Assembly (NCBI GenBank): GCA_050015075.1
Contig: JBEKCB010000017.1
Coordinates: 34,498-98,497, forward strand
Length of the DNA: 64,000 nt
Direction of reading: 5' to 3'
Source of the DNA: Candidatus Brocadiia bacterium
Lineage (GTDB): Bacteria; Planctomycetota; Brocadiia; CAIUPP01
The translations under genes were made by a program, and so were the position numbers. Shown in pieces: positions 45,138 to 52,039 of this stretch (position 1 is the stretch's first letter; every line of letters starts with the position of its first letter). Under the pieces are notes generated by a model. That model was given only the letters and a program-made list of their open reading frames with translations, was not told where the DNA came from and ran no database searches.

Positions 45138-47156
45138 TTAGAACACGTTGTGTTCGGGGCCACGTCTCCGCGCAAGCGCGCCGGTCGGACACGCCGCCGC
45201 GCAGCGCGCGCCGGTCCGGGCGAGACCTTCGGCGACCGGGCGGTCGAAGGGAATCGCCGCCACAGTCGGGAAGCCGCGTCCCTCGAACGTGATCCCCGGC
45301 CGCTCGCCCTCCTGTTCCGCGATCCGCACGCAGAGCCCGCAGAGGATGCACTTGCCCGACTCGTACACGATCTCCGGATGCGAGGCGTCGCGAGCGAACG
45401 CGCGGCGCGCGCCCTTGTATTTCCCCGGCTCGGCCGCGTACTCCGTCCCGTACCGCCGAAGCCCGCACGTGTCCCGCGCCAGGCAGTCGCACTGGATGCA
45501 GCGCCGCGCTTCGCGGACGGCCTCGGCGTCCGAGAGCCCGCCGGTGACCTCGTCGAACGTCGTCCGCCGCCGCGCCGCGTCAAGTGAAGTACCCTCGGCG
45601 CGTTTTTCGCCGCGAACGAACTCCCGGAAGAGCGCGGCATGCTCCGAATCGGACAACTTTCCCATCAGCACGTGCAGCGGCTTTGTCTCACCGACGACAG
45701 GTTCGGCACGCAGGAACTGGCCGATGGAGAGTGCCGCCAGCCGGCCGGCCGCGACCGCGCGCACCGCCGCGCCCGGCCCGGCGACGCACTCTCCTCCGGC
45801 GAAGACGCCGTCGAGGTTCGTCGCCAGCGTGCGCCGGTCGGCCGCGATGCCGCGGGCGGAGACGCTCAGGCCGAGCTTCTTGAAGAACTCGGTGTCCACC
45901 CGGCGCGGCGGGGCGGCGATCAATCGTCCCGCGTCGAGGGCGAATGTTGCGCCGTCTCGCTCGAACGTCACGCGCACCGCCTCGCCGCCGGTCGAATCGG
46001 TTCTCACCAGCTTCGCACTCAATTCCAGCTTGACGCCTTCGGCCTCGGCGGCGTCAACCCATTCGCCGAAGCAGGACATGCGTTCGCGCGTGGTCTCGCA
46101 GACCAGCGTGACGCGGCGCGCGCCGAGCCGCAGCGCCGTCTGCGCCGCCGCCACCGCCTCGTCGCCGCCGCCGAGAACCACGACCGATTCAGGCATTACC
46201 GGACGTTGGCCTTCGGCGACCTGCCGCAGGAACGCGAGCGCCTGGCCGCCGTCCGTGCCCGCTCTTCGCAGCTCCGCTGCTTCGGCGGGCGTAGAAGAGC
46301 CGAGCGCCAGGAACACGGCGTCGTGCTCGCGGCGCAGTCTCTCGAAATCGAGACTCTCGCCTAACCGCTCATTCATCCGGAATTCTGCGCCGAGGCGGCG
46401 GACGACGGCGATCTCGGCTTCCAGCGCGCGCTTCGGCAGGCGGAACTCGGGGACCGCGTACCGCAACAGCCCGCCCGGCTCCGCGGAGGCGTCGAAGACC
46501 GTGCAGGCATGTCCTTCCCGCAAAAGATAGAACGCCGCCGTGAGCCCCGCCGGTCCGGCGCCGACGATGGCGATTTTCTTGCCGGTTGAAGGTTCCTTCG
46601 GCGGAAGATCGGCGTCGCCCTTCGCCACCGCGGAGTCTGCCGGGAATCGTTTGAGGGCGCAGATGGCGATGGGCTGATCGAGTTCGCCGCGCCGGCAGAC
46701 GCGCTCGCAGAACCGCGGGCAGATGCGACCGAGCGCGCCGCCGAATGGGATCCGCTCGCGGATGACCTCCAGCGCGCCTGATGGATCGCCCTCGCGGATA
46801 CGCCGGTTCATCGCCGGGATGTCCATCCCGGCAGGGCAGGCCAGCGTGCAAGGCGCGACGCAGTCGCCGACGTGGTCCGAGAAGAGCAGCTCCAGCGCCG
46901 TCCTCCGCGCCGCGCTGATTTCGTCGGAGCGCGTGGTCACGACCATCCCGTCCGCCGCCGGCGCCACGCACGAGGGCACCAGGTTCCGTCGACCCTCGAC
47001 GCGCACCACGCAGAGGAAGCACGACCCGAACGGCGCGACGCCGTCCGCGTTGCAGAGCGTGGGAATCCCGATGCCAAGCTTCCGCGCCGCGTCAAGAATC
47101 GTCGCGCCGCGCTCGACCTCGACCGTGTGTCCGTCAATCGTAAGTGTAATAGGCAT
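45138..47156 (-). CDS. [2Fe-2S]/[4Fe-4S] FAD-dependent oxidoreductase (NuoG-N plus GltD/NfnB-like, StnC-like)
   Basis: IPTLC..SCFLCVV..SC, HVGDCVAPCTLACP, GRICPRFCE, GAGPAG, EARRCIQC, CILCGLC, CAAACPTGAL. Confidence 0.88.
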   Translation of the reverse strand: MPITLTIDGHTVEVERGATILDAARKLGIGIPTLCNADGVAPFGSCFLCVVRVEGRRNLVPSCVAPAADGMVVTTRSDEISAARRTALELLFSDHVGDCVAPCTLACPAGMDIPAMNRRIREGDPSGALEVIRERIPFGGALGRICPRFCERVCRRGELDQPIAICALKRFPADSAVAKGDADLPPKEPSTGKKIAIVGAGPAGLTAAFYLLREGHACTVFDASAEPGGLLRYAVPEFRLPKRALEAEIAVVRRLGAEFRMNERLGESLDFERLRREHDAVFLALGSSTPAEAAELRRAGTDGGQALAFLRQVAEGQRPVMPESVVVLGGGDEAVAAAQTALRLGARRVTLVCETTRERMSCFGEWVDAAEAEGVKLELSAKLVRTDSTGGEAVRVTFERDGATFALDAGRLIAAPPRRVDTEFFKKLGLSVSARGIAADRRTLATNLDGVFAGGECVAGPGAAVRAVAAGRLAALSIGQFLRAEPVVGETKPLHVLMGKLSDSEHAALFREFVRGEKRAEGTSLDAARRRTTFDEVTGGLSDAEAVREARRCIQCDCLARDTCGLRRYGTEYAAEPGKYKGARRAFARDASHPEIVYESGKCILCGLCVRIAEQEGERPGITFEGRGFPTVAAIPFDRPVAEGLARTGARCAAACPTGALARRRGPEHNVF

Positions 47157-47177
47157 AATTAGTTAGCGATGTATAAT

Positions 47178-47492
47178 CAGAAGTTATGTCACTAGCGTAT
47201 GTTACGGCGCGCTGGGTTCGTTTTTTCAAGTCCGATGGCCGCACTTGACCCTGTTTTTAGTGGGCGGCCAAGATCGGTCGTAGTTCGTGTTGGACCTACG
47301 CCTTCTGTGGCATCTGGTCGTAAGGTGACGAGTCATATGTTCTTACCATGTATCAATCGTAAACTACGTTACCACAGCGTCTTGAGGCAAATTGGATTCG
47401 TTTTTTCAAATCGTCTTTTGTGCGATATCTTCCTCTCCGCGTGTATCTTGCGACTTGTGCGGAAGCATACCATAATAATTCTTATGTGTCAA
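47178..47492 (-). promoter_or_regulatory. Promoter-bearing dispersed element, copy 2, with duplicated core and spaced palindromes
   Basis: TTGACA (47492-87)-N17-TATGCT (47469-64); cores TGG(G/A)TTCGTTTTTTCAA at 47213 and 47393; GTAAG-N17-CTTAC-like sites at 47178, 47319 and 47358. Confidence 0.7.
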
Positions 47493-47677
47493 GTGGCATT
47501 CTGCTGTTCTGCCGACGCTATATGCGCACTGATGTCGTACTACCCATCCGAGATGCCAGTTATGACTTGGCTCTCCGCCAAAATATTTTCCGCTTTTTTT
47601 ATTTTCAGCCGTTCCAGAGTAAACTTAGGGCCGAAGCTGCAAAAATAAGTCATGTGTCCGGGGAGCCTGCTAAGACC

Positions 47678-49558
47678 TCATTTCTTCGCTTTAGCCAAGT
47701 GCTTAACCATGCGGTTGGCATCGGTCGAAATCTGCTCAAAGGCAAGGCGAGCGAGTTCGGATTGTCCGGCCATCTGAATACGCTCGTCGGCGATCTGCTG
47801 AACCTGCTTTAGGGTATCTGAGTTCCGGGATTGTAATGCGCCGTGTAGCGAAGCGAGAAGTCGGGCGGGGTCTCTCTCATGGCGACCTAGGGCTGCGAGA
47901 CTGGCTTGGCCCAGTGCGGGGCTAAAAGTCAACGACCAAAGATATTTCCGAAACCGGTTTATCTCCTCTTGCGGCTCCTGGATCGTCTCAGAAAACATCG
48001 AGTTCTTGACCCGCCCTGGAGCCTTCACGAACAGGGCGAGAATCGTCTTCTTAACGGCTGGGGAAGTTTCCTTTAAGTAACGCGCACGAAGCATTTTGAA
48101 GTCGCGGTCGTTAAATGGAAAAAGCATGAGGCTCAGCAGAGACTCAGCGCGTACGGCCCAATGATACGCACCGCCGCATCCCAATCGAATGAGTGGGCTT
48201 TTGTGCTTGGAACTCAGCACGCCTGAGCTGCGAAACATCGGCAGAAGGTAAAGATATTGCGCGTCGAAGAGTTCTTCTTCCCCCAGCAATGCCTTTTCCA
48301 CGCCAGCCTGCACCGACTTGCGGCCCATCCAGTTTGAAAGATACCGGGCAACTTTCTCTGTCAACGCAGGTTGCCTCCATATCCACTTGAGCGACTGCTT
48401 GACGGCCATCGGGGAATGGATACGCGATAGGAGTGTGAGCGTTCTCTTGAATAGACGAAGGTCTTCCTTTTCCATCTTTCGCTTGTAGGCTAGGTGCTTC
48501 TTGAAAACGGGTCGAACGGCGGAGATTGCCTCTTGCTTTTGCGCGCGCGTGATGTTGGCCGGGTCTTTAGGCAAGCCATCTATGATCTTCGTGACTTGGT
48601 CAACGCGCTCGTCATAAAGCCTTTTGCGTACCTCGTCACCTTCATAAATTTCGGTCTTGCTTGACTGCATATTTAAATGAAGGCGCCGCAGAATGCGGTT
48701 GATCATGAATATAACATACCGTGCCGTTTTCCGGTCCTTGGTAAAGACCTTTATATCATCCACGTAGCGGACGTACTTGATTAAACCTTTGCGTTGCAGT
48801 TTCAGAAGCTCGGCATCCATCTCTACGAGGTAGAGAGTGCCGAGCCAGCTTGAAATCTCGTTGCCTTGCGGAATTCCCCGCTGCGGTCGAAAGCCGGTCA
48901 ACGATGGTGTTGCCCAAAAAGAAAGCATCTCCATCAGGAGATTGATAAGGTGCAGTTGGTGCGGCGCATACTGCCGGAGAATATCGGCCAGTATCGGATG
49001 GCTTATATTCTCGAAATAGGCGCTGATGTCGGATTCGACCATTAAGGTGAATCCTTCCTTCTCGTAGATGCTCTGAGCCTCCTCTACAAACTCCGGCCAG
49101 GCTTCGTACCAGTCCTCAAAAATCCGAAGTTCTCGGCGCAGTTCCTTTCGGATTAGGACTGGCCCTTCGTTTTGGAAGAACTTGTCAGGATCTGGGCGCT
49201 TGCCCTTCTTCTTGACGCGAAAATGGAAAACGCTTTCAGGCAGGAAGCGGTCCATAAGGGGCGCAAGCAGATAAGCAATCCCGAAAAGAACTATGTGGTC
49301 TTCGATGTCGAGTGAGCTTCCGGGACGAACCGCCAAGCCGCTTTTCGGAACGTCGATTTCCTTTAGCGGTCGTGGCCGATACGTGCCGTTCTTGAGACCC
49401 TGGCCGAGTCTCTGCAGGTTATCCCGAAGGTTGAAGATGTAGTCCTGATTCCTGAAGGTATCAGGAATGAAGTCGTTCGTCTTGTCGTCGTGAACATAAT
49501 TCGCGGCGATCTTGAGAACCGTTGGATCACACAGTTTTCTGTAAAGGTCTCGGGTCAT
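47678..49558 (-). CDS. Reverse transcriptase, UG/Abi (DRT-like) type, with helical C-terminal domain
   Basis: IDVPKSG..RP, ESDISAYFENISH, RGIPQG, YVRYVDD, LNMQSSKT; about 320-aa HEAT-like tail; visibly lower GC than the flanks. Confidence 0.92.
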   Translation of the reverse strand: MTRDLYRKLCDPTVLKIAANYVHDDKTNDFIPDTFRNQDYIFNLRDNLQRLGQGLKNGTYRPRPLKEIDVPKSGLAVRPGSSLDIEDHIVLFGIAYLLAPLMDRFLPESVFHFRVKKKGKRPDPDKFFQNEGPVLIRKELRRELRIFEDWYEAWPEFVEEAQSIYEKEGFTLMVESDISAYFENISHPILADILRQYAPHQLHLINLLMEMLSFWATPSLTGFRPQRGIPQGNEISSWLGTLYLVEMDAELLKLQRKGLIKYVRYVDDIKVFTKDRKTARYVIFMINRILRRLHLNMQSSKTEIYEGDEVRKRLYDERVDQVTKIIDGLPKDPANITRAQKQEAISAVRPVFKKHLAYKRKMEKEDLRLFKRTLTLLSRIHSPMAVKQSLKWIWRQPALTEKVARYLSNWMGRKSVQAGVEKALLGEEELFDAQYLYLLPMFRSSGVLSSKHKSPLIRLGCGGAYHWAVRAESLLSLMLFPFNDRDFKMLRARYLKETSPAVKKTILALFVKAPGRVKNSMFSETIQEPQEEINRFRKYLWSLTFSPALGQASLAALGRHERDPARLLASLHGALQSRNSDTLKQVQQIADERIQMAGQSELARLAFEQISTDANRMVKHLAKAKK

Positions 49559-49564
49559 CTTTAA

Positions 49565-52039
49565 TCACCCCGTCTCCACATCCACCGCCTTAGCCGGACA
49601 GATCGCCGCGCAGGTGCCGCAGCGGATGCACTTGGTCTGGTCAATCTCGTGCTGCTCGTAGGGGCGCGGCTCGATGGCGTCTGCGGGGCATTGCTGGGCG
49701 CAGAGGGTGCACCAGAAGCAGCGGTCGGTGATCGTGTAGCGGATCAGCGCTCGGCAGCGCTTGGCGGGGCAGCGCTTTTCATGGAGATGCGCCTCGTACT
49801 CGTCGCGGAAATATTTCAGCGTGGTCCGGACCGGGTTCGGCGCGGTCTGCCCCAGGCCGCAGAGGCTGGTGCGGCGGATCTGCTCGCTGAGCTCTTCGAG
49901 CCGCTCGATGTCGCCGCCTTTCCCTTCACCCGCGCAGAGACGGTCGAGGATTTCCAGCATCCTTTTCGTTCCGATTCGGCAGAACGTGCACTTGCCGCAG
50001 GACTCGTTCTGCGTGAATTGCAGGAAGAAGCGCGCCATGTCCACCATGCACGCGGTGTCGTCCATCACGACCAGTCCGCCGGAGCCCATCATCGCGCCGA
50101 GCTTGGTCAGCTCCTCATAGTCAATGCGCGTGTCGCGCAGCGACGCGGGGATGCAGCCGCCGGACGGGCCGCCGATCTGGACGGCCTTGAACTTGCGTTC
50201 GTCGCGGATGCCGCCGCCGATATCCTCGACGATCTCGCCGATCGTGATGCCCATCGGCACCTCGATCAGCCCGCCGCGCACGACCTTGCCCGCGAGCGCG
50301 AAGACCTTGGTCCCCTTGCTCGTCGCCGTCCCGACCGCGGCGTACGCCTCGGCGCCGTGGCGGATGATCCACGGGACGTTCGCGTAGGTCTCCACGTTAT
50401 TCACGCTCGTCGGCATTCCCCAGAGGCCGGATTCGGCCGGGTAGGGCGGGCGGAAACGCGGCATGCCGCGCCGGCCTTCGAGCGAGGCGATCAGGCCGGT
50501 CTCCTCGCCGCAGACGAACGCGCCGGCGCCCTCCATGACGTGAAGCTTCACGTTGAAAGCGCCGGGATCGCCGTTCCCGAAATAGCCGCGTTCGGCGGCC
50601 TGGCGGATGGCCTCGCGCGCGCGGCGGACGGCGAGCGGATACTCGGCGCGGATGTAGAGGAACGCGTCGCCCGCGCCGACGGCGTAGGCGGCGATGGCGA
50701 GGCCCTCCAGGACGCGGTGCGGGTAGGACTCGAGCATCATGCGGTCCATGAACGCGCCGGGATCGCCCTCGTCGCCGTTCATGATGATGCACTTCTTCGG
50801 CGCGGCGTGTCTGCGGACGGCGGCCCACTTGGCGCCGGCCGGATAGCCCGCGCCGCCGCGGCCGCGGAGGCCGGAGTCCTTGATGATCTGGATGACCGCG
50901 TCGGGCGAAAGCTCGCGGAGGCACTTTTCGAGCGCCGCGTAGCCGCCGTGGGCGCGATATTCGTCAATGTCCAGCGGATCCATTTCGCCGCGCCCTTCGA
51001 GCACGATTTCCTTCTGCTTGGCGAGGAACGCGCGGACCGGGCCGCTCTCCGGGTCGAGCGAATAGCTGCGGGCCGGCTGCCACGAGGAGTCTGTTGTGAG
51101 CAGGTCGCCCGCGCGCCGCAGCGCCGACTGCGCCTGGCGCAGAATCCCCGCCGGCCGGAGTTGCTCCGCGAGGATGTTGCGGACGGCGGAGGGCTTCACA
51201 CCGGCGTAACGGGCTTGCCGGCCAGCGCGGGTGAACTCCACCAGCGGCACGCGATGGCACATGCCGATGCACGCGCCGCACTTCACGACGACGTCCTCGC
51301 CCATGGCGCGCAGCGTCGCGTCCAGGCGCTCCTTCACCTCGGCGCTGCCGCTGGCCATGCAGCACGAGCCCAACCCGATCCGAATCTCGACCGGCTCTTC
51401 CGCGCCGCGCCGCCTGCGCGGTGGACGGCGCTCCGGCGCGGCCTTCGAGCGCGCGCGCTCCTCTTCCTGGCGAAGGAACTTTTCCAGCACGCTCCCGGCG
51501 GTTTCGCCCGCGACGTGGCCGTAAACGCGGTCGTCAATGCGCACGACCGGCGCCAGCGAGCAGCACCCGAGGCAGGCGACTTTCTGCACGGTGAAAAGTT
51601 TGTCGGAGTCGGTGTCCGCCTCGCCTTCCAGCCGCAGGTGCCGCCGGACCGCCTCGGTGACTTTCTCCGCGCCGGCGACGTGGCACGCCGTGCCATGACA
51701 GACGCTGACCAGGTGCCGGCCGACCGGCATGCGGCGGAACTGCGAGTAGAACGTGGCGACGCCCTCGATCTGCGCCGGCGAAATCTCGGTGGTCTCGCAG
51801 ACGCGGATCAGCGCCGGCAGCGGCAGGTAATGATACTGCGCCTGCACGGCCTGAAGGATCGGCAGCGCGCAGCGGCGCTCGCGGCCGATTTCCGAGATGA
51901 TGCGATCCACGGCGGCGAGGTCGAGCGGTTCGGTCTCCGGAGGAGCGGCCATGGTGGACGAGGTGGACAACGGCATTGACGGCATGGACGAGGGCGATTG
52001 ATTGGGGCTCGGCGGCGTCGGGATTTGGGCTTTGCTCAT
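49565..52039 (-). CDS. Fused NuoE/NuoF (HydCB/StnAB-like) NADH-binding flavoprotein
   Basis: VCHGTACH, CLGCCSLAP, SCC..CIGMC, GLRGRGGAG, NGDEGDPG, FVCGEET, ESCGKCTFCR, C-terminal 2x[4Fe-4S]. Confidence 0.93.
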   Translation of the reverse strand: MSKAQIPTPPSPNQSPSSMPSMPLSTSSTMAAPPETEPLDLAAVDRIISEIGRERRCALPILQAVQAQYHYLPLPALIRVCETTEISPAQIEGVATFYSQFRRMPVGRHLVSVCHGTACHVAGAEKVTEAVRRHLRLEGEADTDSDKLFTVQKVACLGCCSLAPVVRIDDRVYGHVAGETAGSVLEKFLRQEEERARSKAAPERRPPRRRRGAEEPVEIRIGLGSCCMASGSAEVKERLDATLRAMGEDVVVKCGACIGMCHRVPLVEFTRAGRQARYAGVKPSAVRNILAEQLRPAGILRQAQSALRRAGDLLTTDSSWQPARSYSLDPESGPVRAFLAKQKEIVLEGRGEMDPLDIDEYRAHGGYAALEKCLRELSPDAVIQIIKDSGLRGRGGAGYPAGAKWAAVRRHAAPKKCIIMNGDEGDPGAFMDRMMLESYPHRVLEGLAIAAYAVGAGDAFLYIRAEYPLAVRRAREAIRQAAERGYFGNGDPGAFNVKLHVMEGAGAFVCGEETGLIASLEGRRGMPRFRPPYPAESGLWGMPTSVNNVETYANVPWIIRHGAEAYAAVGTATSKGTKVFALAGKVVRGGLIEVPMGITIGEIVEDIGGGIRDERKFKAVQIGGPSGGCIPASLRDTRIDYEELTKLGAMMGSGGLVVMDDTACMVDMARFFLQFTQNESCGKCTFCRIGTKRMLEILDRLCAGEGKGGDIERLEELSEQIRRTSLCGLGQTAPNPVRTTLKYFRDEYEAHLHEKRCPAKRCRALIRYTITDRCFWCTLCAQQCPADAIEPRPYEQHEIDQTKCIRCGTCAAICPAKAVDVETG

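Follow-up and report, generated by a model that had tools for sequence, protein, structure and literature searches.

Class 1 of the UG/Abi reverse transcriptases (RTs) is the clade whose members bear C-terminal alpha-helical repeats, and the passages of Mestre et al. 2022 (PMC9226505) drawn on here place the UG21 group within it. Described systems of similar build include AbiK, Abi-P2 and AbiA (PDB 7R06, 7R08, 8OZ7; PMC9508834, PMC11077055), which are two-part, single-gene systems, and DRT4 (UG15) and DRT6 (PDB 9VDV, 9L9S, 9WY8; PMC12783706), each likewise one gene for an RT with a helical domain. DRT4 is reported to make random single-stranded DNA (ssDNA) without a template, and PMC13174585 describes the synthesis carried out by Class 1 DRTs as untemplated. 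This study concerns an RT gene in a stretch of 64,000 nucleotides (nt) from Candidatus Brocadiia bacterium (assembly GCA_050015075.1, contig JBEKCB010000017.1, positions 34,498 to 98,497), hereafter called the window, whose own numbering is used below unless another contig is named. The genome it comes from (G000) is metagenome-assembled, with 93.6% completeness and 3.8% contamination. The gene lies between two genes of redox proteins, the first of which is nuoEF. It is a bare, horizontally acquired UG21 RT gene with no detectable promoter that probably serves as a self-sufficient anti-phage gene on nuoEF transcription, and the enzyme would likely make untemplated, protein-primed DNA.

A UG21 reverse transcriptase

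The gene under study is as follows.

47678-49558, minus strand: RT open reading frame (ORF), intact, 626 amino acids (aa), UG21-group Class 1 UG/Abi by its profile match, with an RT domain at residues ~1-307 and an all-helical repeat domain at ~308-626

The translation contains the motifs VESDISAYFENI, RGIPQG and RYVDD, and the sole Pfam domain found in it is RVT_1 (E 4e-14). The first-pass annotation of the window, made from the sequence alone, had described a UG/Abi-type RT with a helical C-terminus and proposed a DefenseFinder/PADLOC check. The PADLOC profile search returned RT_UG21 on top (E 1.5e-105, 351.8 bits, profile positions 3-488 of 503), with UG19 (199.8 bits, E 2.6e-59) and UG23 (161.3 bits) as the runners-up, and profile scoring thus assigns the protein to UG21 within Class 1 UG/Abi. 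An AlphaFold2 model built with 45 homologues agrees with the description of the C-terminus: the model as a whole has a mean predicted local distance difference test score (pLDDT) of 89.1 and a predicted template modelling score of 0.89, and residues ~308-626 are modelled as helices only at a pLDDT of ~90. D177, R227-G228, P230-Q231-G232, Y265 and D267-D268 are invariant over the alignment of the 45 homologues.

Compared as a whole, the model aligns with DRT6 over 448 residues (Z 17.2), AbiK over 464 (Z 16.7), Abi-P2 over 395 (Z 16.1) and AbiA over 371 (Z 18.1), and the structure alignments that reach into the helical domain are to Abi/DRT Class 1 enzymes only. The three Abi proteins therefore share the two-part architecture at 371-464 residues and Z 16-18, but their sequence identity to the window RT is just 12-15%, and AbiA has a HEPN domain whereas the window RT has none. 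DRT4 and DRT6 belong to different UG groups, whose profiles score much lower than that of UG21 on the window RT. When the RT domain is taken alone its best structural matches are group II intron RTs and RTs of diversity-generating retroelements (DGRs), at Z 24 over ~262 residues. The closest fold is the group II intron RT GsI-IIC (PDB 6AR1/6AR3; Z 24.5 over 263 residues, 24% identity), and group II intron RTs are also the best PDB sequence match (E 3.8e-15). However, the window RT lacks the maturase/X domain, the endonuclease and the intron RNA of these enzymes, and has the helical repeat domain instead of a thumb.

The claim that the gene falls outside the group II intron, retron and DGR families held up in domain, Rfam and repeat searches. 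Pfam found no maturase/X or endonuclease domain in the RT protein, and no Rfam family matched 46500-50500 at E<=1, so that there is no match to an intron RNA or a retron msr/msd. No template repeat/variable repeat (TR/VR) pair was found, the longest direct repeat in 47100-49700 being 22 nt at 77% identity, and no effector ORF of the retron type adjoins the RT locus. All three identities are excluded because neither a maturase/endonuclease domain, an Rfam match nor a TR/VR-like repeat was found: the group II intron on RVT_1 as the only domain and the missing intron RNA match, the DGR on the missing TR/VR-like repeat, and the retron on the lack of an Rfam match and an effector ORF and on a flank that is host DNA with no more structure than shuffled sequence.

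Nothing sets the window RT apart from the UG21 group, which in the passages of Mestre et al. (PMC9226505) has the same single ORF, an RT with a HEAT-like helical C-terminus and no fused enzymatic domain. The contexts reported below, a cargo slot between a Type IIG-type methylase and an HKD-SNF2 helicase and a solo gene in a redox operon, were found neither in those passages nor in a literature search.

The insertion behind nuoEF

The insert and the genes and repeats that border it are as follows.

49565-52039, minus strand: nuoEF, a fused NuoE-NuoF-type flavoprotein gene, 824 aa (2Fe-2S_thioredx, Complex1_51K and NADH_4Fe-4S domains), stop codon at 49565-49567
49577-49565, minus strand: left direct-repeat copy GGAGACGGGGTGA, the true nuoEF 3' end with its stop codon
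47616-49564, minus strand: foreign low-GC insert of ~1.95 kb, made up of 6 nt, the RT ORF and a 62-nt 3' tail, from the alignment with an RT-free congener and the guanine-plus-cytosine (GC) profile
47615-47605, minus strand: right direct-repeat copy GGAACGGCTGA, a leftover duplicate of the nuoEF 3' end, stop codon included
45138-47156, minus strand: GltD-like Fe-S/FAD oxidoreductase gene, 672 aa (Fer2_4/Fer4_20/Pyr_redox_2), which ancestrally stood right next to nuoEF

The RT start codon, at 49558, stands 6 nt past the nuoEF stop with GGGGTGA just before it, and the non-coding stretch behind the gene (47157-47677) is 521 nt long. The RT ORF has ~51% GC in a genome of ~70% GC, and the profile runs at 0.47-0.55 over 47000-49500 with flanks of 0.64-0.73. 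The first-pass annotation had described a low-GC RT 6 nt behind the nuoEF stop and followed by AT-rich non-coding DNA, which is accurate, and had read it as inserted between nuoEF and its partner gene. Comparison with relatives bears out the insertion. In G001, a genome of the same genus that lacks the RT, the empty site reads GGGACGGGCTGA with the sequence in a single copy, and a spacer of ~555 nt comes straight after the nuoEF stop, with the GltD-like gene behind it. The non-coding DNA of the window from ~47615 downwards aligns to this spacer, beginning at the G001 stop codon, and the insert itself is bounded by the imperfect direct repeat of 11-13 nt. Among 41 relatives the RT is present in one, which is G000 itself. 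UG21 occurs in 2 of 401 genomes of the phylum and is rare in general: of 1.84 billion representative proteins, only 116 clusters match it at E<=1e-30.

Metagenomic contigs confirm both states of the site. One of 2902 nt from run X7, an independent run that is not flagged as the source sample, spans 46900-49655 with 3 differences and bridges both junctions, and an assembly artefact is ruled out because this contig covers the insert. In a contig from run X10, whose nuoEF is ~95% identical, 47598 is continuous with 49565 and the 1966 nt between them are missing. Because of these two contigs, filled and empty alleles are taken to co-occur in peat samples.

The insert holds the RT ORF alone: no other ORF, terminal inverted repeat or long repeat pair was found within it, in keeping with the earlier remark that no transposase was to be seen. 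An insertion sequence (IS) element or transposon was rejected on these grounds, as there is a repeat like a target duplication but no second ORF or transposase and no terminal inverted repeat. The 12 nt ahead of the RT ATG resemble the same stretch in the methylase-linked loci described below. This likeness is compatible with capture of the gene at the DNA level, through microhomology near GGGC(T)...TGA, and the target duplication would be explained by a staggered break that was filled in.

Related loci and the defence-gene slot

Homologues 72-80% identical to the window RT were found in metagenome-assembled genomes of Nitrospirae, Verrucomicrobiae, Syntrophorhabdales and Syntrophaceae and in metagenomes, making 11 distinct relative loci (L004 and L025 are the same and counted once). 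A Type IIG-type methylase (Eco57I and TaqI_C, ~1000-1230 aa) ends 0-60 nt before the RT in five of the 11 (L002, L004, L005, L021, L027). In all four methylase loci with enough downstream sequence an HKD(PLD)-SNF2 helicase follows the RT, with no gene, one small gene or two genes in between. The RTs of close relatives are 69-85% identical to each other and the linked helicases 67-79%. Other neighbours of the RT in relatives are PDC-S15/FRG, PDC-M30A, a Schlafen-type helicase and an N6/N4 methylase, and in L029 a remnant of ~35 nt of the methylase 3' end, read by eye, precedes the RT. A literature search for a system joining an RT, a Type IIG enzyme, SNF2 and PLD found nothing relevant, and the RT had no match in plasmid, phage and IMG/VR collections.

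The helicase was used to look at the same locus from the other side. Its orthologues (37-90% identical) occur in 11 of 401 genomes of the phylum of the seed locus (L004/G426), and tblastn found no RT in the 10 loci besides the seed, 4 of which have less than 3 kb of upstream sequence; methylase and helicase are both visible in 6 of the 10. DNA homology to the RT-bearing locus L005 breaks off with the methylase stop codon and is regained only in the next conserved gene. In place of the RT, the slot holds Shedu SduA (E 7.6e-89) with PDC-M41A in L067, the helicase-orthologue locus of G750; that of G511, L066, has Avs3 (E 1e-209) there, and that of G743, L064, has an IS200-like ORF. Between L004 and L064 the exchanged block is the C-terminal half of the methylase together with the RT, not the RT alone. 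Because the helicase operon is found without the RT in other loci, where the slot holds Shedu or Avs3, comparison of these loci indicates that the RT is cargo, interchangeable with known single-gene systems that take the same defence-gene slot, and not a fixed subunit of a methylase-helicase system. This alternation with Shedu and Avs3 in one slot is the most direct comparative evidence presented here for a self-sufficient UG21 defence gene.

Two further observations concern these gene families. A radical-SAM gene like that of spore photoproduct lyase often lies right before the HKD-SNF2 helicase. G000 itself has a defence island at C17:5044-17464, ~17-29 kb ahead of the window start. Its genes, which represent the family types found beside the RT in other phyla, encode a Type IIG restriction-methylase of 1081 aa, a PADLOC C3a139 match (E 1.4e-52) that is an HKD+Snf2 helicase, and a methylase resembling PglX (E 2.4e-126).

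Selection and expression

In a related peat lineage, seen in the metagenome contigs L028 and L020, the RT also lies behind nuoEF, and the DNA identity to the window across the nuoEF region is ~87-91%. The nuoEF stop and the RT ATG are 110 nt apart there (L028:5890-6000), compared with 6 nt in the window; this stretch holds an extended -10-like motif TGGCTATAAT and a duplicated TTGGGAGAT. In the related lineage an IS630-like element, bounded by terminal inverted repeats and a TA duplication, interrupts the RT at codon 185 (L028:6556-6677, L020:1-122). Further along, after the split RT, L020:1465-1790 is a fragment encoding the C-terminus of an IS4/IS5-type transposase.

The ratios of nonsynonymous to synonymous substitution (dN/dS) between the window and the related lineage are as follows.

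RT, N-terminal part, 185 codons: dN/dS 0.128
RT, C-terminal part, 442 codons: dN/dS 0.144
nuoEF, 823 codons: dN/dS 0.206
Next gene upstream, 600 codons: dN/dS 0.305

The synonymous divergence (dS) is alike over the RT, nuoEF and the next gene, at 0.26-0.38. Both patterns fit an RT that was inherited together with its flanks and kept under purifying selection as a solo gene, with a recent knockout in one strain. The only region common to the window, G001 and L028 is 510 nt at the nuoEF 3' end. There the window is 92.7% identical to RT-free G001 and 90.0% to RT-bearing L028, and it shares 8 derived sites with G001 and 3 with L028. If the 8 versus 3 holds, the options would be a precise loss in G001 via the flanking repeat, homologous recombination of the flanks between strains, or two insertions, and the data are too thin to decide among them.

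With regard to expression, a consensus scan detected no promoter-like site upstream of the RT on the minus strand, as had been supposed from the sequence, and, from the RT as far as the promoter-like site in the spacer, the coding strand showed no terminator-like site. No conserved 5' leader was found either: the window shares no element with the 110 nt of L028 or with the upstream sequences of L003, L022-L024, L026 and L029, and a common RT leader is present only in L003, L023 and L024, with each other.

The downstream DNA

The first-pass annotation had also proposed that the DNA behind the RT contains a promoter re-initiating the interrupted operon, and that 47493-47677 is a candidate partner RNA. 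Neither proposal survived the comparison with G001. The features concerned are as follows.

47157-47604, minus strand: host spacer separating nuoEF from the GltD-like gene, homologous to the RT-free G001 spacer and outside the RT element
47492-47464, minus strand: promoter-like TTGACA-17-TATGCT within the host spacer, older than the RT

The promoter-like sequence is the best of 4 such sites in the 521-nt stretch (shuffled sequences give 1.7 +/- 1.1). The RT-free spacer of G001 keeps the same TTGACA site and the same spacer sequence after the nuoEF stop, so the site predates the RT. In 7 of 7 loci from other families of the class that show both genes (L008-L012, L014 and L015; 11 loci examined), the gap between nuoEF and the GltD-like gene is <20 nt, and among the compared loci an AT-rich spacer of 450-555 nt is found in this genus only. 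Because RT-free G001 has the spacer and other families have a gap of <20 nt, the spacer is, on this alignment evidence, a genus-level feature older than the RT.

The proposed partner RNA is host spacer from 47604 down. Its predicted fold is no better than that of shuffled sequence (z +1.0), as is that of 91 nt around the insert tail (z +0.8), and it has no Rfam match. The ATGACTT/AAGTCAT repeat that had been pointed out straddles the boundary, one arm belonging to the insert and its counterpart to the host, and the GCCAAGT...ACTGGC hairpin is part of the host sequence and recurs in the G001 spacer. The expectation that the 3' flank would be conserved among RT homologues failed as well: the 3' flanks of the relatives' RTs have no common sequence, with the RT packed 0-60 nt from neighbouring genes. 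No partner RNA is expected because Class 1 enzymes make untemplated DNA, according to PMC13174585. The partner RNA and the restart promoter are thus removed as a false lead.

Function and alternative explanations

Taken together, the data show that a bare gene of ~1.95 kb, with no detectable promoter, arrived exactly at the nuoEF stop codon in one lineage of the genus. The RT would be transcribed together with nuoEF by read-through and translated from the GGGGTGA just before its ATG, and it would act as a single-gene anti-phage module rather than as part of an RNA-templated retroelement. By analogy with AbiK, Abi-P2, AbiA and DRT4, a phage cue may activate the enzyme, leading to protein-primed, template-independent ssDNA and so to abortive infection; untemplated ssDNA synthesis is its most likely activity. 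The stand-alone defence RT using a host operon that the first-pass annotation had suggested is still the best reading of its role, argued from comparison with relatives whose slot otherwise holds Shedu or Avs3.

Several points weigh against this explanation. Untemplated synthesis is predicted from class membership only, and the RT domain, taken alone, is structurally nearest to enzymes that do use a template, the RTs of group II introns and DGRs (Z 24). The passages of Mestre et al. 2022 (PMC9226505) count UG21 among the groups whose defence prediction is inconclusive, and the literature search found no experimental work on any UG21 member. The RT is dispensable in the related lineage, as the IS630-like insertion at codon 185 indicates. 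With regard to expression, a 190-nt contig from the RNA-library run X24 equals 48508-48697 with 0 differences, but this is a weak hint of transcription, being one strandless contig from one library with possible DNA carry-over; in the same run nuoEF is represented only by short imperfect pieces from other organisms, and the nuoEF-RT junction is uncovered.

It could be argued that the gene is a functionless relic, torn from a methylase-RT-helicase operon, landed by illegitimate recombination and now a decaying passenger. The window RT does lack the neighbours found in 5 of the 11 relative loci, the methylase remnant of ~35 nt in L029 implies that orphaning does occur, and the split RT of the related lineage is what decay would produce. 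However, the window ORF is full-length with every catalytic residue kept, and its dN/dS of 0.13-0.14, over a dS of ~0.3, is below that of the flanking housekeeping genes, which makes a relic unlikely. Slightly less probable again is that the RT works in trans as an accessory of the Type IIG methylase and HKD-SNF2 helicase at C17:5044-17464 of G000, ~65 kb away on the same contig. The HKD+Snf2 protein (C3a139, E 1.4e-52) there adjoins IIG-type and PglX-like methylases, and all belong to family types that stand next to the RT in relatives, where the RT (69-85%) and the helicase (67-79%) are both highly conserved. On the other hand, the G000 helicase is just 29% identical to the RT-linked helicase, and the helicase operon is RT-free in 10 of 10 other loci with unrelated defence genes in the slot, as would be expected of cargo rather than a subunit.

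The remaining two alternatives concern how the gene moves and what it copies. The RT might be a self-mobilising cassette, an ORF-only unit that enters sites after stop codons, perhaps via its own mRNA, and makes a target duplication of ~12 nt. The insert is indeed little more than one ORF with flanks of 6 nt and 62 nt between direct repeats of 11-13 nt, a transposase and a terminal inverted repeat are both not found, and the gap from an upstream stop to the RT start is 0-60 nt in six loci (L002, L004, L005, L021, L027 and the window). Yet the window insertion is a single instance, the sequence at its left end is similar to the 12 nt that precede the ATG in methylase-linked loci, which fits microhomology capture at the DNA level, and no A-tract or other mark of retrotransposition lies between the insert and the right repeat. 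The swap between L004 and L064 moved the methylase C-half with the RT, and no plasmid, phage or viral collection held a match. Mobility of this kind is accordingly very unlikely for the window insert. The more general proposal, in which UG21 RTs are minimal mobile cassettes that colonise operons as a bare ORF after a stop codon, possibly by their own polymerase, and live off the host promoter, fares barely better and would still be a surprise; if it were true, the redox operon and the methylase-helicase operons would be landing sites and not functional partners. Least credible of all is an RNA-templated system in which the 3' flank encodes a partner non-coding RNA (ncRNA) copied by the RT, as in DRT2 or DRT9. 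An AT-rich non-coding flank is present, and the Class 2 UG/Abi systems DRT2, DRT9 and DRT10 are described as using an adjacent ncRNA. However, the flank from 47604 down is host spacer found without the RT and the insert extends just 62 nt past the stop, the fold scores are z +0.8 and +1.0 with no Rfam match, and UG21 is Class 1, with the relatives' RTs 0-60 nt from their neighbours and their 3' flanks without common sequence.

The locus amounts to a clean natural experiment: a bare gene sits in a housekeeping operon, alleles with and without it occur side by side in one habitat, and it is under purifying selection with no partner gene. The 626-aa protein is also a compact candidate for Class 1 untemplated DNA synthesis.

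Repeats in the host spacer

The spacer behind the RT carries two copies of the motif TTGAAAAAACGAAYCCA, at 47393-47409 and 47213-47229 on the minus strand. The motif has 41 copies in G000, 39 of them outside the spacer, compared with 0 for a reversed control, and forms the core of a conserved unit of ~100 nt that often occurs in 2-3 copies per 150-200 nt on both strands. An Rfam search with five copies of this host repeat gave only a chance miRNA match below threshold. The G001 spacer differs from that of the window in carrying, just before the GltD-like gene (L018:960-1050), a long GAC/GAG-rich palindrome, CGTCCTCGTCC...GGACGAGGACG, which is absent from the window.

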